Origin: a virus
Taxonomy: Duplodnaviria; Heunggongvirae; Uroviricota; Caudoviricetes
DNA: 37,331 bases
IMG/VR virus record: IMGVR_UViG_2537561506_000022
Coordinates: 1-37,331 of that record
Reading direction: 5' to 3' (one strand)
Below are positions 2,813 to 21,528 of the stretch, in pieces. Each line of letters starts with the position of its first letter. Within the stretch, counting starts at the first letter, position 1. Below the pieces are notes generated by a model. That model had not been told where the DNA came from and did not search any database. It saw only the letters and a program-made list of their open reading frames with translations. A program made the translations under genes and the position numbers.

Positions 2813-3352
2813 GTGTTAAGTGAAGAAATGCAATTTGCCATGGCTGTAGCTCAAATCGTAAGTGCAGTCGCGGTTTCGCTTGGCTTGTTCATAGCTATCG
2901 CTACTATTATTTATAATGTAAATACAGCGAGAAAAGTACACACTTCAGTATTCCTTGGTGAAAGCAGGTTTGATGTAGATTATAAGAAAGGCCTATCTAC
3001 TATGCGCCGCATTCACGAATCGAACAAATCATTCCGCTCTTATATGTATCCAAGCAATGGGCAGGCTGATCTTACGGATGAAGAAAAGACAGAGAAGAGA
3101 GAAATAATTTACTGCCTAGGTTTCTACGAACGCATGGCTGTGAGCGTGAAGCGGAAAACTTATGATGAGACCATGATTAAGGAAGTATTTTACAGCTCCG
3201 TTGTAAATAACTATCAGATTGCGCTACCTCTTATACAAGCCATTAGAGAAAAAGAAAACATAAACACATATTTTAAAGAATATGAATGGTTGGCCACACG
3301 ATGGAAGGATTGTCCATTGAAGGATAAATCCCCGTGGTACAAGTTTTGGTAA
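2813..3352 (+). CDS. Membrane-anchored protein of unknown function (N-terminal TM helix plus ~140-aa soluble domain); cargo candidate
   Basis: 179-aa ORF, GTG start with GGAG 7 nt upstream (alternative ATG at 2828); hydrophobic segment FAMAVAQIVSAVAVSLGLFIAIATIIY; locally AT-rich; no family recognised by eye. Confidence 0.6.
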   Translation: MLSEEMQFAMAVAQIVSAVAVSLGLFIAIATIIYNVNTARKVHTSVFLGESRFDVDYKKGLSTMRRIHESNKSFRSYMYPSNGQADLTDEEKTEKREIIYCLGFYERMAVSVKRKTYDETMIKEVFYSSVVNNYQIALPLIQAIREKENINTYFKEYEWLATRWKDCPLKDKSPWYKFW

Positions 3353-3445
3353 GCCCGCGTTGCGGGCTTTTTTATGGACGAAACAAAAGTTAGTGCTACA
3401 CTCATTGACGCCACATTGAGGTGGCTTATAGATGGAAATTTCACA

Positions 3446-3607
3446 ATGAAAAAAGCATTTGCTGCACTGTTCGTTTTGTTGTCTCTGGTAGCTTCAACTC
3501 AGGCCTTTGCCGGTCGTTGTCAGCACGACAGCGATACTGCTGCTGACGGCTCCCGCTGCGGTGGGCGTTCTGCGGATTCCCGCCCGGGCGGCGGTGGCAT
3601 TCGTTAA
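3446..3607 (+). CDS. Small predicted secreted peptide (signal peptide plus 31-aa Cys/Gly/Arg-rich mature part)
   Basis: ATG at 3446 in frame of track ORF 3374..3607; MKKAFAALFVLLSLVASTQAFA looks like a Sec signal peptide with an AFA-G cleavage motif; the coding region is GC-rich unlike its neighbours; weak RBS. Confidence 0.35.
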   Translation: MKKAFAALFVLLSLVASTQAFAGRCQHDSDTAADGSRCGGRSADSRPGGGGIR

Positions 3608-3657: not shown

Positions 3658-3920
3658 CACGTCCCTGTGCCGCCGTTCTGTCAGAAGAACCCTGCCTTGT
3701 CGTTGATGTATTCCGCGTGCGTCTGGATATCACGCAGGCATTTGCTCACACCGACGATGTAGCAGAACATGGTGGTCAGCTCCGCCGCTGCGCCCGATAC
3801 ATCATGCCCGTCTTCCTGTAACTGGTTCAGCAGATTCATCAGCAGTGAGTTCTCAGTCAGGCCGAGAACACCAGACGGCGAATGAATCAGACTGCGGTAG
3901 CCTGGCTTCAATGGATAACC
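3658..3920 (-). repeat. Copy B (inverted) of the ~260-bp antirepressor C-terminal repeat
   Basis: Reverse complement matches copies A and C; slightly more diverged at its 5' end. Confidence 0.85.
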
Positions 3921-4619
3921 ATAACATTTTGTCTGTGTTTTAATTGCCTCACGAAGCGCATCTAACATCTTGACTGCCACTTCATCATTCTCTGATGCAG
4001 ATCCAGCAGGGAGATACTCCCCTTCAAGCGGAACCCGAGCAACAAGAGACAACGCTTCGGCAAATTGATCTTCACCAATTTCTTTGTACGAACAGCCAAA
4101 ATGAGATTTCAGTGACGACCACATGGTGATCATCGCCTTAGCCTGTTTTTCTTTTGGCAGAGACTGACCGCGACTCATGACGAGTTGTTTAATGGCTTCC
4201 TGCTGTTCAGTTGTTATTTTACCCGGCAACGCCTTTTTAGCTTTGCGTGGGTTAACCACATGGCCTTTAGTCCAGTACTCGTAGAGCACATCGTCACACT
4301 CTTCCTGATACTGGATTACCTTGTCGCGGATTTCAGGGCGGACTTTGTTAGGGCTGATGCTGTTCAACCAAGCTGCCAATTTTCGTAAAGCCATACAAAT
4401 CATGGCTTGCACCCCACCGGCAGAAGGTATGGTGATTTCCACCATACCCTTCGAGAAGCGTTGAGAAATCTTCTTATGTTGAGATTTCCAGTCTAGCCCC
4501 ATTCCCTCAACGATAGGTTTCATTGGGGTATACGGTTCGCCGTTGTGATTGACAACATAAAGCTCTGCGCCGTGGAATGGCACGTTGATAGTAGATACTG
4601 CTGTTGCTATACTCGTCAT
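3681..4619 (-). CDS. Phage antirepressor (P22 Ant-like N-terminal region plus shared C-terminal domain)
   Basis: 312-aa ORF; position and orientation downstream of an Arc-like gene mirror the P22 immI arc-ant layout; C-terminal ~80 aa shared with ORFs 1909 and 35363. Confidence 0.75.
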   Translation of the reverse strand: MTSIATAVSTINVPFHGAELYVVNHNGEPYTPMKPIVEGMGLDWKSQHKKISQRFSKGMVEITIPSAGGVQAMICMALRKLAAWLNSISPNKVRPEIRDKVIQYQEECDDVLYEYWTKGHVVNPRKAKKALPGKITTEQQEAIKQLVMSRGQSLPKEKQAKAMITMWSSLKSHFGCSYKEIGEDQFAEALSLVARVPLEGEYLPAGSASENDEVAVKMLDALREAIKTQTKCYGYPLKPGYRSLIHSPSGVLGLTENSLLMNLLNQLQEDGHDVSGAAAELTTMFCYIVGVSKCLRDIQTHAEYINDKAGFF

Positions 4620-4668
4620 GTCGTTAATTCCTATACGTAGTTTTACGATACTGAAGCCCTGACGGTCT

Positions 4669-4682
4669 GGCCACCGTGGGGC
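4669..4682. promoter_or_regulatory. Palindrome GGCCACCGTGGGGC in the arc-ant intergenic region
   Basis: Shares the CCACCGTGGGG core with 4874..4888; a GAAGCCC/GGGCTTC hairpin is also present here. Confidence 0.35.
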
Positions 4683-4691
4683 TTCGCTGTT

Positions 4692-4859
4692 TTATGCCAC
4701 GCTATTCTTCTCACCAGTGAGTCCATACACTTTCCTCAGCTGATAGATAATCTCTGTATTGAACTTTCGGCATTCTTTTTCGCCATTTCTTTCAATAGCT
4801 AACTTCACATCGTCCGGAAAACGAACTCGTCGTTGACACATCTCTTTTGCTTTTTGCAT
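4692..4859 (-). CDS. Arc-like ribbon-helix-helix repressor
   Basis: ATG at 4857..4859 (reverse) with GGAG 7 nt upstream (track ORF extends to a GTG at 4880); RVRFPDDVK...NTEIIYQLRKV aligns with P22 Arc (NLRWPREV...NSEIYQRV). Confidence 0.55.
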   Translation of the reverse strand: MQKAKEMCQRRVRFPDDVKLAIERNGEKECRKFNTEIIYQLRKVYGLTGEKNSVA

Positions 4860-4873
4860 TTCATATCTCCTTA

Positions 4874-4888
4874 GCCCCACCGTGGGGC
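4874..4888. promoter_or_regulatory. 15-bp perfect palindrome GCCCCAC-C-GTGGGGC, candidate Arc/Mnt-type operator
   Basis: Sits next to the Arc-like RBS in the divergent arc/mnt control region; CACCGTG half-sites recur at 4899-4907 and, inverted, at 4926-4932. Confidence 0.45.
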
Positions 4889-4979
4889 AAAATAATTGTC
4901 ACACCGTGCGTCATTGATGTCAAGCACACGGTGAGGCATACTTCAATCATTGCAAGTAACTCAATATTTGGTGAAGAAC

Positions 4980-5411
4980 ATGAGCAGAGAAGATCCACAA
5001 CTAAGGATCAGACTTCCCGTCGAAGTAAAAGAAAAAATAGAAATTTCTGCAAAAGCCAATAAGCGATCAATGAACGCTGAAATAGTACAACGTCTTGACA
5101 CCAGCTTTCTGAAAGATATTCATGAAGATGACGTAATTTCTGCTTATGAAGCAAAAATCATTGCAAACAATGCACGACATGAAATATCAAATATTATTTT
5201 CAAAAGAACCTTTAATGAAATTAATAAGAAAATAACACTTGGACATACAAGTTTTTATATAAACCTTAATGACCTTGAACTGGAATCACTTGCAGATAAT
5301 GATTACCAGATCATCTTTGAAAAAACATTTAATAAGCTCAATGAACTAGGTTACATCATCTGTGAAAACTCATGGGATGCAGATGGTTTTGGAATTGAAA
5401 TACCTGAATAG
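4980..5411 (+). CDS. Mnt-like ribbon-helix-helix repressor with a ~60-aa C-terminal extension
   Basis: ATG at 4980 with GGTGA 5 nt upstream; SREDPQLRIRLPVEVKEKIEISAKANKRSMNAEIVQRL aligns closely with P22 Mnt (ARDDPHFNFRMPMEVREKLKFRAEANGRSMNSELLQIV). Confidence 0.7.
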   Translation: MSREDPQLRIRLPVEVKEKIEISAKANKRSMNAEIVQRLDTSFLKDIHEDDVISAYEAKIIANNARHEISNIIFKRTFNEINKKITLGHTSFYINLNDLELESLADNDYQIIFEKTFNKLNELGYIICENSWDADGFGIEIPE

Positions 5412-5474
5412 GAAGAACAAAAGGCGTGTACATATTACACGTCTTTAATACAATTGAAAAACGCCACATTACTG

Positions 5475-6065
5475 ATGTATGTTACAACAAGGAGCGATAT
5501 TTTGAAAACCATATCTATATTAAAGGTTGCATTAGGCGTCGCTATTATTTTGACTCTCTCAATATTGTTTTATTTTTACCACAAACAAACTGCTATTGCT
5601 CTTGATAGTCACGCGGCAAACTCATTTTTCTCAGAGTACATAGTGCCGCTATCAGGAAGCGGTATAACAAATAAATATACTGACTATGACATCAAATATG
5701 GAATTGATGATGGGGAGACTATTGTATTACATGTAATCATTAAAAACCTAATGACAGTAAATAAAAATACAGACTTCAACGATAAAAATACAATACATCA
5801 CAACAACAGCAAAACATTAATTTCTTATAGTAGCAACATCTATACGGATAAATACCTAAAATACATATCAGAAGATACAATAAAAGAAACCCGCGCAAAG
5901 TTAAAAAACATATATTGTGCATCCGGCAGTTTTCACAAATTATCGCCGCAAGAGCGTTTATTCTACGAAGCAAGAAAACAACGTAAGTCAATAATATTAC
6001 ATTATTATGCTGATTCAGGGGAGACACTCATATTTAATATTGGGGTTTCCCCTGAATCATGCTAA
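5475..6065 (+). CDS. Low-GC membrane-anchored protein of unknown function; candidate superinfection-exclusion protein by position (P22 sieA-equivalent)
   Basis: Track ORF 5454..6065; likely start is ATG 5475 or TTG 5502 (the TTG has AAGGAG 7 nt upstream); hydrophobic ILKVALGVAIILTLSILFYFY; very AT-rich with N/K/Y-rich codon use. Confidence 0.55.
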   Translation: MYVTTRSDILKTISILKVALGVAIILTLSILFYFYHKQTAIALDSHAANSFFSEYIVPLSGSGITNKYTDYDIKYGIDDGETIVLHVIIKNLMTVNKNTDFNDKNTIHHNNSKTLISYSSNIYTDKYLKYISEDTIKETRAKLKNIYCASGSFHKLSPQERLFYEARKQRKSIILHYYADSGETLIFNIGVSPESC

Positions 6066-6076
6066 AGGTGTTTAAC

Positions 6077-9000
6077 TCACCGCATCACCGGATCCACCTG
6101 GTTTATTAGTGGCGCAATCCAGAACAGGTTATTGCCGGGTATCAGGGTTCGGACATTATGCACAATACGATCACCGGCATCACCATTCAACACTCCTGCG
6201 GTCACATCAATGATGCTATCCGCAAGACCAAATGACGGTCCGAATAGAGATCCTACGAATCCACGACTGGCATACCTAGACTGTGTGCCAGTGCCAAATA
6301 AAGCCCCCAGCCCAACAGCACCACCAGTAGCCTTTTCAGCCATATTGTTATATTCCATCAATGGCCCAAGAATACCGGATCTATCTATACCCTCAAGCAC
6401 CAGCTTCTCTGGTGACCAGTCAACATTTTTCCCTTTCGATGCTTCTTTAAGCGCATAGACCAGTGAGCCAAGAGCAATCTGAAATGCAGTGCCATAATAA
6501 AATTGCGCAGTTCCTTCCTGTAACCCACCAAGTAGCGCACGGTTGTATGAAGCCGTTGTGAATGATTTAAACTGAAATATCGTTCGCCCCATTGGAGTAC
6601 TCGCCCATAAAGGTGTGTCACCAATACCGGGGGTGATGATAGTGTTATTAACGTCTTTCAGAACCGCTGACTGGAATACTCCGGCAACGTACTGATCGTC
6701 CCATTTATCAAAGTTACCAATGTGCCATCCATCAATTACCTCACCATGTTTCTCGAACTCACTGCGAATACGCGCAGCCATATTGTCGTTGATACCGAGT
6801 TTTGCCATGCGACGTGCAGAAAACGCACCAGACAAAATACCGTCTGACGTGAGCATTCCGTTCATGGATTTGTTTATGTCATTAAATCGATCCATGAGTG
6901 TCAGCTTGCCGAAGGCATCAGTAATTCGCTCCATTCCTGCTTCGACTGCTGTTGTCCTGGAAGAACTGTCAACAAGATCACCAATTGCACGAGAACGTGA
7001 ATGTAGTACAGTTTCCAATCCAATCCCCATCTTCAACATCTCTTCTTTGCTGGCCTTAAATGCCGGTGATTGGGATATCTGAGAAGCATAGCCTTTCATG
7101 GAGTTACGGAAACCATTAACCATAACCCCTCTGGCCAGATCTGGAATAGCTGATACTGTCATTCCACCGAGTTTGGTCGTGAAGTTCACATCCCGCAGAA
7201 AAGCGCCAGCACGAACAAAAAACGAAGACGGGTCATCAGGCATACCATATGTACCAACAAGACGATCGCGTAATGCTGTTATGTCTCTGAGATCATTTGC
7301 TCTTGATTTTGAAAGTCTGGACTGTTCTTTCCGTAATTCCTTTTCGTACTTTCGCATTAATGAATCGAGTTTACCCTGAGGAACAACTTCACCATTGCTC
7401 TCATAACGTGCTTTCAGATTTGCCACACTTTCGTCATATTTCGCCTTTATTTTTTCAGGCACTTCCCGTAACAGACTGTCATATTCGTCCTCAATTAATT
7501 GCAGACGCTCTGTCATAGTTCGTTTGCCAAATGTTCTCGTCAACTCAATTTCTGCTGCCGCTTCACGGATATGACGTTGTAGAACGTAATTCACATCACT
7601 TTCGAGATAATCCCTGATAAGACTATCAGGCACATTTAATGTTCTTTCTTTCGTACTACCTGCGGCTTTTACAGAAAATACGCTGACAAAATCCTGTGGA
7701 ACCTTAGCACCAGTAATTTTATTAATTACGATATCCGCTGCAATTTCAGCATCCTCAGGATCCAGTGTTTTATTGCCTCTCGACCACCAGTCAACCAAAA
7801 TACGTCGAAATTTATCGCGTTCACTGATTATTTTTCCAACTTTATATATACGTGGGAAATAGCTTGCCTGGCCTAATGCTTTCAGTTCTTCATCTGGCGG
7901 CAATAAACCAAGCTTTTGCATTTCAACCTTCACCCGATTTAATACAGTTCGCATCGCCTGCGCCGTTTCCTGAACAACAGGATTAGCATGCACATCACCG
8001 CTTCGCATAGCATTCCCAACCTGCTGACGAAATGAATCAAAACTCATGTCACCACCATCAGCTTTATACTTTGCGTATGCCTGTTTATTTCCGACAACAA
8101 CAGCAGCTTCTTCACGCTGCCATCCACGTGTACGGGTTTCTACAGCTACCGGTGTTTCAATCCCCCTTTCATTTCCTTTAAGGGTGAAATTATTTTCGGC
8201 TAACTCCAGCGTTGTTTTTCGCACTGTCTTGGACGGAGACTCCATTAACCTTGTCAAAGGAGTAAGATAGCTCCCTGCTTTCCATGCAGCCTTTCCAACC
8301 ACCCCACCGGAAACAGGGGTTAAATCATCCAGAGTCGCTGTATCAATTTTCATAGCACCAACACTACCACCATCAGAAAGCGAAGCGGCAGCCCTGTCAG
8401 TCGCTGATGTAATGCTCATATTATCAAGAGCATCAGCAACCTCACGCGTGGCTGCAGCCCGGACGGATGGCGAAAGCGCAACACCAGCACTGGCAAACAC
8501 GCCGCTCATCATCGCACCCGCTGCAATGTGAGCGGCACTTTCACCCCATGAGCGTGTTATTTGCTGATTATTCAGCACAACCTCGCTTAATGCTGTACCG
8601 GCTGCACCAATCGCAATCTGTGAGCCAATACGCGCCAGTGCCCCTCCTTGAGCACCGGGGATAAACATTGACGCAACAGTAACCGGATCCATTCCCGCAG
8701 CAATACTGGCAAGGGTTCCAACTACGCCAGCATCAGACAATAAACGTCTGTCTTCATTTTCATCATCTATCTGCTGCTTAATCCACGCCGTTTCCTCTGG
8801 CGATCGGGAATCTGCAAATTTCGCCCCCCAGTATTCATAACCGTGCAACTCATTTTTATCAGCATATGGGTTATAACCTTCGACCGGTTCAAACTGTCTG
8901 GCTGGTCGGAAAAAACCAGCCAGAATATTGTTCTGTCGCATTGCAGCCCCCCATACGGAAGGCTCCGGTGGCAATGGCTCAGGATTAGCCCCTTCCGGAA

Positions 9001-9091
9001 GGGCAACATCAAACCCAGTTTGTTCCGGCAAAACATTACCTGACGGGATCAGTCCGTTATTAAGATCTTCAGCTTGTGCATAAACTGGCAT
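6077..9091 (-). CDS. Internal virion / DNA-ejection protein (T7 gp16-position, 1004 aa)
   Basis: Large ORF at the end of the gp8-to-gp16 synteny block; Gly/Ala/Ser-rich segments typical of ejection proteins. Confidence 0.7.
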   Translation of the reverse strand: MPVYAQAEDLNNGLIPSGNVLPEQTGFDVALPEGANPEPLPPEPSVWGAAMRQNNILAGFFRPARQFEPVEGYNPYADKNELHGYEYWGAKFADSRSPEETAWIKQQIDDENEDRRLLSDAGVVGTLASIAAGMDPVTVASMFIPGAQGGALARIGSQIAIGAAGTALSEVVLNNQQITRSWGESAAHIAAGAMMSGVFASAGVALSPSVRAAATREVADALDNMSITSATDRAAASLSDGGSVGAMKIDTATLDDLTPVSGGVVGKAAWKAGSYLTPLTRLMESPSKTVRKTTLELAENNFTLKGNERGIETPVAVETRTRGWQREEAAVVVGNKQAYAKYKADGGDMSFDSFRQQVGNAMRSGDVHANPVVQETAQAMRTVLNRVKVEMQKLGLLPPDEELKALGQASYFPRIYKVGKIISERDKFRRILVDWWSRGNKTLDPEDAEIAADIVINKITGAKVPQDFVSVFSVKAAGSTKERTLNVPDSLIRDYLESDVNYVLQRHIREAAAEIELTRTFGKRTMTERLQLIEDEYDSLLREVPEKIKAKYDESVANLKARYESNGEVVPQGKLDSLMRKYEKELRKEQSRLSKSRANDLRDITALRDRLVGTYGMPDDPSSFFVRAGAFLRDVNFTTKLGGMTVSAIPDLARGVMVNGFRNSMKGYASQISQSPAFKASKEEMLKMGIGLETVLHSRSRAIGDLVDSSSRTTAVEAGMERITDAFGKLTLMDRFNDINKSMNGMLTSDGILSGAFSARRMAKLGINDNMAARIRSEFEKHGEVIDGWHIGNFDKWDDQYVAGVFQSAVLKDVNNTIITPGIGDTPLWASTPMGRTIFQFKSFTTASYNRALLGGLQEGTAQFYYGTAFQIALGSLVYALKEASKGKNVDWSPEKLVLEGIDRSGILGPLMEYNNMAEKATGGAVGLGALFGTGTQSRYASRGFVGSLFGPSFGLADSIIDVTAGVLNGDAGDRIVHNVRTLIPGNNLFWIAPLINQVDPVMR

Positions 9092-11808
9092 TATTTAGAT
9101 CCCCACGAAAAGTAATCTTTAAATTTGTCCATACGTTCGTTATGCAGGCGCTGATACTGCTCATCCAGAGCGCGATGCTTGTCTTTGAAGTTTCGTATAG
9201 CCTGTCCACGCATAATTTCTTCCTGCTCGTACTGCTCCCGTTCCTGCTGCATTTTCTTATAAGGTTCCCAATCTTCTAGTGATGGTTCCCAACGCATAGG
9301 ACGCCCATGTTTGTTATAAAACGGCTGGACCCGATCGATGCCATTTTCATCCTTAGTTCTTACCATAATGGCGTAATCACCATTACGAGGTGTTAACACG
9401 TCAGGGGTTATGAATAATTCTCCATTAATACGACTCTCAGGGGTTTTTGTCTCAACTACAGGAGCATTACCTGACGTGATCCCAAGCAACGTCGGACTGG
9501 TTGTTATAATCTCTTTGCGCTCACCGTACATCAGCCGTTCTTTTTCAGCTTTCCACTGCGCCGCCTGCCAGCCTGACGGCCCATATTGATAAAGCGCCTC
9601 CGGTGCATATTTCATAAACTGCGCTTCTCCGTTAACCTCGCTGATACTCCAGGTGCGGGCTATCTGCTGGTTGGTCATTTGCTTCGCTACGTCAGCGTTA
9701 CCACCAGCAACGCGGTAGTTAATGTCATACAGCGTCTGATAGTCATTACGGAATCTAGCTGCTTCCGGCGTCTGGTCATCCGCAGACGGATCCCAACGGA
9801 ACCACTGCGCCATATTGCTGACAGCAGAATTCATCGCCTTGCTGCGATTATTTTTGTACTCTTTTGAACTCTGCGTTGATGCCAATTGAGCTTTAAGAGC
9901 ATCGGTCTGGTTGTACGTCAGGTTCTGCGCCTGCTCGATAGCCGCATCAGCAGACATGCCAGAATCTGTTAGTTGCTTAACAGTCAGATAAAAACCCTGC
10001 ATATCCTTCGGCATATTTCCAATAGATGCATTGTCTGTTTCATATAACCGACTAAACAAATTCGCTGCATTTTTAACCACTTCCTGATTGCTGGATCTGG
10101 ATACTGCTGAAAGCTGCGTGATGACCTGCGAAGGCATGATGCCAGTCTGAGCCACAAGCCGAACAACCCCATCATGAGTGGAGGCATCATTAATACGAAA
10201 GTTCTGCGCCATTTCTGTGTAATCAGCAGCTTTCTGCATTGATTTGTTGCTTGGGTCTAATTTTTCACCTATTGTCAGCGCCTCATTGAATCTGCGTGAA
10301 TCACGTTGCGCCTGAATTGCTTCATTTGATCGCTGAAGCAATGCAGACAATTTTCCGTAAGCATCGAGTTTTAACGCATAGTGAGGATCGTTAACCTCAG
10401 GCTTCACTTTCTGCATTTCTTCTTGCTGCTGAGAAGGAGGTAAATACTGAATTGCCTGGAATATTCTCGCGTTATCAATCGCTATATCCAGTTGATTGAT
10501 TATTTTATCTGCATTTTTTCCATACCCCCTGATGATAGTCTCCTGAGCCGGTATATAATCTGGAACCTCACCGTTATATAGCTGGGCCATGGTGTTATTA
10601 ATAGCTGGCTCAAGCTGTTCTAATATTAACTTCCTTTGCTTTTCTATCTGACTATTAGCAAGGTTATCTATTTGATAAATAGTCAGCGGATCCATTCCAG
10701 TTTTATTTTTTCTATATCGGGAAAGCCACCCTTGTGTTTCTGATGGAAGATTTCGGATAAATTCTTCTTCTGATATTTCACCTTTACGTGGATCACCGAC
10801 TTTGGCGATCAGTTTATCCACGTTACCCATCCCCCAGTTATATGCTGCTCCGGTCAATATTTCGGAGCCGTACTTACCATACAGTTGATTTACATAGTCA
10901 CTGGCGAGCATTTCATGCTGTTGTTCGTCCGTAGGGTTGTATTTAACGCCACGCTTGGCCGCCAGTTCTTTCCCTGTGCCCGGCATTAACTGGTATTTCC
11001 CCTGGGCTCTCTCTCCAGAAGATGTTATCGGTCCTTCAAGAAGACTACCATCAGGATTAAAATGTCGATCACCTGATTCAACAAGGCGTATGGCACGCAT
11101 GTCCATGCCTCCAGAATCATTTTTCTGAAACAGACCATTTAGCCATCCTTCTGGATTGGCAGCGGCATAATTCTTCGCCCGCATTTCTGTGGCACGGCGA
11201 TCATCACTTTCTATTTCTTCCAGAATGCGTTCTTGTGACCATCCCCTGGCAGCTCCATATCTAGCAATGGCTACCATTCTGGAATTTCTGGCTAAAGTGG
11301 CAGTTTGCGGGTCATTCCAGGCATCCGCTTCATTTTGTATCCATAATTTTCTCGTTGCCTGATTTTGCTCATCTTCATAGGCATTTGTCTGCCCTATCTC
11401 ATGTCTGAGAACTCCAGTACTGAACTGAATTTTCTGTGTTCTGGCTTGTTGCAAAAACATATTTCTTGCTGCTTCATCAGTCAATGAAGCAGCTATTTCT
11501 TCCACATCCTGATCAAATCCAGATATGTACTCTTGCCCCTTACCAATCGCATTTTTGCCTTGTTGTGCATAAAAACCGGTTTGAGGGTTATAAAGACGTT
11601 CATTGCTGCGCTGATTAAGCTGAAGGATGGCATCCTGAGACAATGCAACATTCGCTTTCTGCCTGGCTTCACCATATGCCACCGCATACTGATCTGCGAC
11701 ATTCGCCAGCACCTGACCTGCTTGAGGAACATCGAAGATCTGAAAACCACCGGTTTGCACACCACGACTTTGCACCTGGCGTCCGGATGTAGTAGGAACA
11801 ACTGGCAT
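9091..11808 (-). CDS. Internal virion protein with lytic transglycosylase (SLT) domain (T7 gp15/gp16-like, 905 aa)
   Basis: Contains VESGDRHFNPDG...GKYQLMPGTG, matching the SLT ES...YQLM catalytic signature; position in the T7-like block. Confidence 0.8.
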   Translation of the reverse strand: MPVVPTTSGRQVQSRGVQTGGFQIFDVPQAGQVLANVADQYAVAYGEARQKANVALSQDAILQLNQRSNERLYNPQTGFYAQQGKNAIGKGQEYISGFDQDVEEIAASLTDEAARNMFLQQARTQKIQFSTGVLRHEIGQTNAYEDEQNQATRKLWIQNEADAWNDPQTATLARNSRMVAIARYGAARGWSQERILEEIESDDRRATEMRAKNYAAANPEGWLNGLFQKNDSGGMDMRAIRLVESGDRHFNPDGSLLEGPITSSGERAQGKYQLMPGTGKELAAKRGVKYNPTDEQQHEMLASDYVNQLYGKYGSEILTGAAYNWGMGNVDKLIAKVGDPRKGEISEEEFIRNLPSETQGWLSRYRKNKTGMDPLTIYQIDNLANSQIEKQRKLILEQLEPAINNTMAQLYNGEVPDYIPAQETIIRGYGKNADKIINQLDIAIDNARIFQAIQYLPPSQQQEEMQKVKPEVNDPHYALKLDAYGKLSALLQRSNEAIQAQRDSRRFNEALTIGEKLDPSNKSMQKAADYTEMAQNFRINDASTHDGVVRLVAQTGIMPSQVITQLSAVSRSSNQEVVKNAANLFSRLYETDNASIGNMPKDMQGFYLTVKQLTDSGMSADAAIEQAQNLTYNQTDALKAQLASTQSSKEYKNNRSKAMNSAVSNMAQWFRWDPSADDQTPEAARFRNDYQTLYDINYRVAGGNADVAKQMTNQQIARTWSISEVNGEAQFMKYAPEALYQYGPSGWQAAQWKAEKERLMYGERKEIITTSPTLLGITSGNAPVVETKTPESRINGELFITPDVLTPRNGDYAIMVRTKDENGIDRVQPFYNKHGRPMRWEPSLEDWEPYKKMQQEREQYEQEEIMRGQAIRNFKDKHRALDEQYQRLHNERMDKFKDYFSWGSK

Positions 11809-21451: not shown

Positions 21452-21528
21452 GTGGCATTAGCTCAGTTGGACAGAGCAACCGCCTTCTAAGCGGTTGGTC
21501 GCAGGTTCGAATCCTGCATGCCACGCCA
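21452..21528 (+). tRNA. tRNA-Arg (anticodon UCU), phage-borne
   Basis: 77-nt cloverleaf read by eye: acceptor GTGGCAT/ATGCCAC, D-arm AGCTC...GAGC, anticodon stem ACCGC/GCGGT with loop CTTCTAA, T-arm GCAGGTTCGAATCCTGC, discriminator G and encoded CCA. Confidence 0.9.

Follow-up and report, generated by a model that had tools for sequence, protein, structure and literature searches.

A candidate superinfection-exclusion gene at the sieA position of an epsilon15-like Escherichia coli prophage: a rare family of exported proteins tied to one type of ejection-protein gene

The present analysis concerns a small gene located at positions 5502-6065 (+) of a 37,331-nucleotide stretch of viral DNA (IMG/VR record IMGVR_UViG_2537561506_000022, positions 1 to 37,331; hereafter the window), which is an epsilon15-like (phiV10/TL-2011b-type) Escherichia coli prophage. 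Judging from its conservation, this gene is genuine, its homologues retaining a set of invariant residues at only 27-52% identity, and its product of 187 amino acids is predicted to be directed to the cell envelope and to carry a periplasmic domain. It occupies the position held by sieA in phage P22 and belongs to a family tied to a single type of ejection-protein gene. By analogy with SieA, we tentatively propose, with slightly less than even confidence, that it is a prophage-expressed periplasmic exclusion factor that would act on the incoming ejection conduit, and thus an analogue rather than a homologue of SieA.

The initial annotation had located this gene between a Mnt-like gene and an ejection-protein gene, as sieA is in P22, and the gene order, the sar RNA and Ant all agree with this location. 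Next to the last internal virion (ejection) protein gene, the window displays the order ejection-protein gene (-) / 187-amino-acid gene (+) / Mnt-like gene (+) / Arc-like gene (-) / sar / ant (-), which mirrors the annotated order of P22, 16 / sieA / terminator / orf59a / mnt / arc / sar / ant / 9; the positional likeness is therefore stronger than could initially be seen. The elements concerned are: (i) the antirepressor Ant (3681..4619, -), identified by its P22_AR_N domain (E 5.9e-45), (ii) the sar antisense RNA between arc and ant (4621..4688, +; Rfam RF00262, 44.8 bits for a gathering score of 43), (iii) a small Arc-like repressor gene identified by profile matches (4692..4880, -), divergent from the Mnt-like gene, and (iv) the Mnt-like gene itself (4980..5411, +), encoding a ribbon-helix-helix protein of the Mnt/Arc type with 143 amino acids and an extra C-terminal domain (Pfam Arc, E 1.2e-14; phrog_1388). 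With the sar match between the Arc-like and Ant genes, the P22-type immI module is complete in this epsilon15-like prophage. The family gene resembles sieA not only by this immI slot, beside mnt, arc and ant between the last ejection-protein gene and the tailspike gene and on the strand opposite to the late genes, but also because it is prophage-borne, is accessory (present in only some relatives), has an envelope-bound product and has ejection proteins as its proposed class of target.

Given this identical slot, the gene could be supposed to belong, in diverged form, to the family of P22 SieA, an explanation whose probability we consider negligible. SieA crosses the inner membrane by several transmembrane helices and has a conserved C-terminal motif, FxRYPxEAxxFNK (PMC10883804). 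The window protein has one hydrophobic segment instead of several, its BLASTP comparison with P22 SieA gives 16 bits (E 0.26), and the motif is absent both from it and from the family alignments. With neither similarity, polytopic topology nor motif, membership of the SieA family is refuted. Whereas the SieA motif is cytoplasmic, the family protein is predicted to be a periplasmic alpha/beta domain with two cysteines, secreted or held by a single anchor; in addition, the phages that carry it are epsilon15-like whereas those of SieA are P22-like.

The family is very rare. A word-indexed search of 5.8 billion proteins recovered five clusters (12 when the family profile was used), and HMMER, run exhaustively on 1.84 billion representatives, recovered 15 members; those with a named source come from E. 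coli, Providencia and Proteus. The complete 16-sequence alignment is too divergent for locus scanning. The species-representative genomes were scanned with E. coli-type and Providencia-type patterns. Only one genome out of 185,579 has a member (Proteus cibi, found by the Providencia-type pattern), and the E. coli-type pattern revealed no locus in this set. Within the phage collection, TL-2011b alone carries a member. Among 5,426 complete E. coli genomes, the island containing the gene was found in 36, every time as a single chromosomal copy, and it is 100% identical in strain 2015C-4498.

Forty loci carrying a family member were assembled from E. coli, Providencia, Proteus and metagenomes. In all 40, the family gene and the gene for a homologue of the 1004-amino-acid ejection protein converge, their 3′ ends lying 0 to 34 nucleotides apart (median 11) in the 39 measurable loci; even where the ejection-protein reading frame is broken (L033), it still adjoins the family gene. 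In the window, this last and largest internal virion protein gene (6077..9091, -) is separated from the family gene by 11 nucleotides between the stop codons. The identities drop together, from 95-99% for the family protein and 99-100% for the ejection protein to 46-52% and 69-78%, and then to 27-29% and 42-51%. On the other side, the neighbour varies: a Mnt-like gene in E. coli, a different Arc-like gene in L002, an ORF6N antirepressor gene in L010 and an unrelated gene encoding a 175-amino-acid protein in Providencia. In L009 and L032-L040, terminase genes are found there and the family gene is the lone plus-strand gene among minus-strand virion genes, the strong terminator of the virion operon being situated past it. 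A strong GC-rich hairpin followed by a T-run is observed at this place on the virion-gene strand (L035 5848-5928, with equivalents in L032 and L039). Therefore, the transcript of the virion operon should cross the entire family gene in antisense.

One member, P0021 (264 amino acids; locus L011 2958-3752), is a fusion protein made of the family domain, about 65 ejection-protein-like residues, a transmembrane helix and a basic tail. The insert resembles residues ~40-111 of the ejection protein: it shows 50% identity over 46 residues with the ejection protein of the window (residues ~66-111, E 1e-11) and 38% over 69 residues with the ejection protein encoded next to it (E 1e-12). This copy has diverged and is thus no assembly artefact. 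In the ejection protein, the same motif likewise precedes hydrophobic segments rich in Gly and Ala.

Several features argue for export of the product. Residues 1-26 (5502..5579, +) comprise a short n-region and an 18-residue hydrophobic core that, from hydropathy and from the n-regions of homologues, may be a signal anchor or a signal peptide. The hydrophobic segment covers residues 4-26 of the 187-amino-acid protein (Kyte-Doolittle maximum over 19 residues, 2.47) and no second one follows. All family members begin with a basic n-region, strongly so in the homologues, and a core of about 18 hydrophobic residues. In the lineage of L032-L040 (46-52% identity), the anchor is replaced by a cleavable Sec signal of the AxA type (MKKLIPLLLIFPFIAFA, with S following the cleavage point); therefore, the conserved functional part should be periplasmic and the membrane tether optional. 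The protein had initially been described as membrane-anchored: this holds for the single N-terminal hydrophobic segment, but the protein is not integral to the membrane in the way that SieA is, and the signal of the sister lineage is cleavable. A lipoprotein was also considered and rejected, since the window protein has no cysteine in its signal region and the homologues that have one show a bulky residue at position -1. The lack of a lipobox in the window protein also makes targeting to the outer membrane unlikely.

Beyond the signal region, the invariant residues in the family alignments include those of four motifs: A-x2-F-F-x2-Y-x2-P, Y-x3-(Y/F)-G, L-x3-Y-C and Y-Y-D-x-x-G-x-x-L-x-F-x-x-G-x-x-P-x-S-C. 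The third ends with the family-invariant Cys139 (codon 5916..5918, +), at the end of a helix, and the last with the C-terminal Cys187 (codon 6060..6062, +; motif G-V-S-P-x-S-C), which is kept in all full-length members. Cys187 is proposed to be the disulfide partner of Cys139, and this single disulfide probably stabilises the exported protein.

A small periplasmic domain behind an N-terminal tether is also the architecture of membrane-tethered periplasmic sensors such as T4 RI, and the protein could thus regulate the timing or inhibition of lysis during the lytic cycle of its own phage. We consider this very improbable. The segment is strongly hydrophobic and does not resemble a signal-arrest-release (SAR) segment, the gene is antisense to the late operon, and close prophages with the same virion genes lack it. 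Furthermore, in the whole genomes of phiV10 and epsilon15, the lysis cassette is located on the far side of the tail-fibre gene, away from the ejection-protein genes, and TL-2011b has no annotated lysis gene near the slot. Clear homology to a virion or lysis protein would have counted against the initial annotation; profile and structure searches (Pfam, PHROGs, NCBIfam and BFVD) revealed no similarity of the 187-amino-acid protein to either.

Structure prediction with AlphaFold2 gave a mediocre model for the window protein (nine sequences; predicted local distance difference test, pLDDT, 64) and a good one for a 163-amino-acid Providencia homologue (16 sequences; pLDDT 83.5, predicted template modelling score 0.71). 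The modelled fold, a five-stranded sheet with four flanking helices, is that of the AspS/GspS-beta pilotin (Pfam PF16549) of type II secretion and of PA3611 of P. aeruginosa, and its closest relatives are host periplasmic proteins, namely the pilotin AspS (PDB 4ftf and 5zdh) and PA3611 (PDB 3npd). The paper on AspS describes this fold, its nearness to PA3611 and a conserved disulfide joining the central helix to the C-terminal helix (PMC3542185). In the predicted model of the homologue, the conserved cysteines are located at the end of the central helix (99-111) and in the C-terminal helix. However, profile-profile comparison gives no homology: hhalign assigns the family profile a probability of 0.3% against AspS and of 0.2% against E. 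coli YghG, and none of the 16 family members has a convincing Pfam match. Therefore, the models point to a shared fold only, and membership of the AspS or PA3611 families is not claimed. Compared with both, the window protein has an extra N-terminal anchor helix, and the E. coli-type members have a 29-residue insertion. AspS is an outer-membrane lipoprotein with a lipobox, which the window protein lacks, and is found in the context of type II secretion systems and their secretin, whereas all 40 family loci are phage or prophage DNA beside virion genes. Among viral predicted structures (BFVD), Foldseek found none at E <= 0.001 (best TM-score 0.38). A match to iota-carbonic anhydrase, obtained by profile search of PDB sequences, was judged spurious, with about 10 bits per repeat and a predicted helix aligned to beta strands.

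That the nearest fold relatives are host periplasmic proteins could favour another explanation, in which the product is a lysogenic-conversion or fitness factor that alters envelope physiology or host interaction and is unrelated to exclusion, for example by conferring resistance to stress or serum or by binding a host secretin or outer-membrane protein. PA3611 is reported to be secreted and to act on epithelial cells (PMC8860233), which counts in the same direction. So do the presence of Shiga-toxin-producing and avian pathogenic strains among the E. coli carriers and the traits of an exported, AT-rich accessory gene of a prophage. Nevertheless, we hold such a role to be unlikely: it leaves unexplained both the constant adjacency to the ejection-protein gene amid changing surroundings and the fusion to an ejection-protein segment, and the family is very rare and confined to one phage type. 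A role in serotype conversion was considered unlikely, since prophages of unrelated E. coli strains from humans, cattle, pigs and poultry carry near-identical alleles and relatives are found in Providencia and Proteus as well.

Returning to exclusion at the level of the ejection conduit, this function is suggested by the sieA position, by the tie of the gene to one type of ejection protein and by the action of SieA on ejection proteins, the mutations that escape SieA mapping to the ejection proteins gp16 and gp20 (PMC10883804). The predicted export of the product, the fusion P0021, the accessory character of the gene and the fast evolution of its protein count in the same direction. The prophage would export a small protein to the periplasm, where it would be tethered by its N-terminal signal segment or released by cleavage of it. 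Acting within the periplasm or on the periplasmic side of the inner membrane, this protein could protect the lysogen by interfering with the DNA-delivery conduit that incoming epsilon15-like podophages make from their ejected internal virion proteins, possibly by gripping a helical terminal segment of an ejected protein, as AspS holds the C-terminal S-domain of a secretin. From context and from the analogy with SieA, we infer that the gene is expressed in the lysogen, that its product binds an ejection protein and that it confers an exclusion phenotype. A periplasmic protein cannot be part of the virion, since virions assemble in the cytoplasm. As the product is predicted to be periplasmic and the gene is antisense to the late operon, it should be made from its own promoter or from that of the Mnt-like gene.

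A more specific form of this proposal takes the fusion protein into account: a periplasmic family with the pilotin fold would serve as a trap or decoy for the ejection conduit of superinfecting podophages and would travel and diversify together with its target gene, one lineage having grafted onto the trap a copy of the N-terminal segment of the target. This form is conceivable, but we regard it as rather doubtful. Exclusion could also operate at another step, either by periplasmic inhibition of the SLT domain of the incoming 905-amino-acid ejection protein, in the manner of T4 Sp or an immunity protein, or by blocking of a secondary outer-membrane receptor, as for T5 Llp or Cor. The chances of this are slim: the fold matches none of the Ivy, PliC and MliC-type inhibitors, the window protein has no lipobox that would direct it to the outer membrane, and both the linkage and the fusion involve the 1004-amino-acid protein and not the SLT protein.

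Several small phage proteins exposed outside the cytoplasm block genome entry, such as Ltp of TP-J34, Llp of T5, Cor of phi80 and N15, Imm and Sp of T4, and gp15 of HK97; they are lipoproteins or integral membrane proteins of other phage types. With Ltp, there is already a case of a protein outside the cytoplasm that binds part of the DNA-delivery apparatus of the incoming phage. No sequence or structure similarity of the window protein to any of these was detected with PHROGs, PADLOC and BFVD.

The slot adjoining the ejection-protein gene is a cargo site that holds small membrane or exported proteins in the cases examined, as does the sieA slot of P22-like phages, since relatives carry other such proteins there. 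The ejection-protein gene is present in 44 E. coli genomes (at least 96% nucleotide identity) and the family gene in only 36; the latter is thus dispensable for the phage. In strain A_5, the slot contains a gene (L048 4448-4975, +) for an unrelated 175-amino-acid protein with an N-terminal transmembrane helix (phrog_21690, function unassigned). Comparison ruled out that this protein is a hidden family member, and it is also unrelated to the 175-amino-acid neighbour found in Providencia. In strain UTME-12, the slot contains a gene (L049 4680-4976, -) for a 98-amino-acid protein with two hydrophobic stretches (phrog_21905, function unassigned). phiV10 and epsilon15 have a different set of ejection proteins, followed by a tiny membrane protein with two helices (phiV10) or by the small open reading frame gp18 (epsilon15). 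The family was not found in remoter phages with this type of ejection protein, namely EC.W1-9, a Klebsiella phage and many Vibrio phages. In P22-like phages, sieA itself is present in only 22 out of 66 (PMC10883804).

The 16 E. coli copies of the family gene (window 5502-6065 and L015-L029) display 10 variable codons that change the amino acid and three silent ones. By comparison, the Mnt-like gene has one and seven such codons, respectively, and the ejection-protein gene has 22 and 43 (Fisher p about 0.004-0.008). None of the variable codons hits a family-invariant residue. This excess of amino-acid changes fits diversifying selection or relaxed constraint. In addition, allele P0001 (L030) shows an in-frame deletion of seven residues in the insertion loop, a region modelled with low confidence.

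Several points weigh against an exclusion factor aimed at the ejection conduit. The adjacency to the ejection-protein gene and the co-divergence with it could simply result from two linked genes being inherited vertically at the end of a gene module. The excess of amino-acid changes could be due to relaxed constraint, and it relies on small counts from phylogenetically related sequences. The fusion P0021 is known from a single contig, and the model of the window protein has only moderate confidence. The protein displays no similarity to known exclusion or defence proteins in Pfam, NCBIfam, PADLOC, PHROGs of known function or BFVD. Finally, promoter evidence is weak: the two sigma-70-like hexamer pairs upstream of the start (5427..5483, +), with 9 matches out of 12 each, are no commoner than in shuffled sequence.

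The database scans of the 187-amino-acid protein with Pfam and NCBIfam gave nothing meaningful, and PADLOC gave a sole match, to ThsB (15 bits, E 0.006), which was rejected as its score is at noise level and ThsB is incompatible with an exported protein. The family itself corresponds to phrog_8033, to RefSeq WP_000849598.1 and to gp39 of TL-2011b (97-100% identity to the window protein), entries that are labelled only as hypothetical protein or unknown function. These records bear on the start of the gene. The open reading frame at 5454-6065 (+) has 203 codons counted from a TTG, whereas the true start is most likely the TTG at 5502, giving 187 amino acids: a Shine-Dalgarno sequence, AAGGAG (5489..5494, +), lies 7 nucleotides upstream, the 564-nucleotide gene is annotated with this length by RefSeq/PGAP in TL-2011b and in E. 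coli, and the phrog_8033 profile matches residues 17-203 of the long frame over all its positions (1-187 of 187, E 6.5e-128).

The initial annotation also described this open reading frame as very AT-rich and far above the flanking virion genes in this respect, which is fully borne out. Its GC content is 0.326, and that of the island 4950-6065 is 0.327, compared with 0.465 for the adjacent ejection-protein gene, 0.485 for ant and a window mean of 0.485 (standard deviation 0.043, 564-bp windows). Together with the upstream Mnt-like gene (0.325), it is the sole part of the 37 kb window below 0.36. The composition of the protein had been described as rich in N, K and Y, which is partly right: K (9%), Y (7%) and N (6%) are frequent, but I (12%), S (10%) and L (9%) lead, and T accounts for 7%. 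In every lineage, the GC content of the family gene is 6 to 20 points lower than that of the ejection-protein gene; therefore, the AT bias is maintained and is not merely the trace of a recent transfer. The Mnt-like gene is the AT-rich partner in the E. coli lineage and is not kept beside the family in the others. Overall, the gene shows traits of morons, namely a deviant base composition and an orientation opposite to the surrounding late-gene region.

The gap between the Mnt-like gene and the family gene contains a hairpin (5420..5446) with an 11-bp stem, a 5-nucleotide loop and A-run and T-run flanks; it is statistically unexceptional and possibly acts as a weak two-way terminator. The palindrome at 5426-5440 was considered as a repeated operator and rejected, as it occurs once, as predicted by chance. 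The Mnt-like protein is extended at its C-terminus by about 90 residues, and its counterpart in L002 has only the ribbon-helix-helix part in common with it.

Regarding the prophage as a whole, Escherichia phage TL-2011b shares 99.5% identity with bases 4800-6200 and matches 92% of the length of the first 25 kb of the window; phiV10 and its relatives match these 25 kb at conserved virion genes only. The gene of the 1004-amino-acid ejection protein comes after those of the SLT-domain protein and of a T7-gp14-like core protein. This ejection module (6077-11808, -) differs from that of phiV10 and epsilon15 (L003 and L004) in that one 1004-amino-acid protein replaces gp16 and gp17. Apart from TL-2011b, the nearest phage relatives of this protein belong to Klebsiella and Vibrio podophages (32-36% identity).

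Other elements were observed elsewhere in the window. Rfam matches to isrK (1676-1751, +) and to a C4 antisense RNA (1776-1861, +) lie directly upstream of a Bro-N antirepressor-like open reading frame (1909-2604, +), and this set looks like a second antirepressor control module, of the P1/P7 style. The counterpart of the open reading frame at 2813-3352 (+) is annotated as a YafO-family toxin in TL-2011b and other strains and as a frameshifted DUF2335 in 2015C-4498. It is followed by a small open reading frame (3374-3607, +) with a signal-peptide-like N-terminus, recurrent in related prophages. A tRNA gene (21452-21525, +) is located within the virion-gene region, and an sRNA-Xcc1 match (35262-35351, +) near the far end of the window.

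This work describes a hitherto uncharacterised family whose fold is recognisable and whose linkage to a neighbouring gene is unusually strict, and does not change what is known of prophage accessory genes. Its practical relevance is modest, but the family gene might restrict phiV10-group phages employed in therapy or typing. How the ejected proteins of podophages form a channel for DNA through the Gram-negative envelope is poorly understood, and P22 SieA is so far the main natural inhibitor known for this step. If the proposed function is true, prophages of a different group of podophages would have arrived at the same defence with another kind of structure, and the family would provide a small soluble probe for ejection machinery of the epsilon15/T7 type. 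If, more specifically, the trap or decoy is true, the family would be the periplasmic equivalent of SieA, in soluble or tethered form, and would offer a handle on the assembly of ejection proteins across the periplasm.
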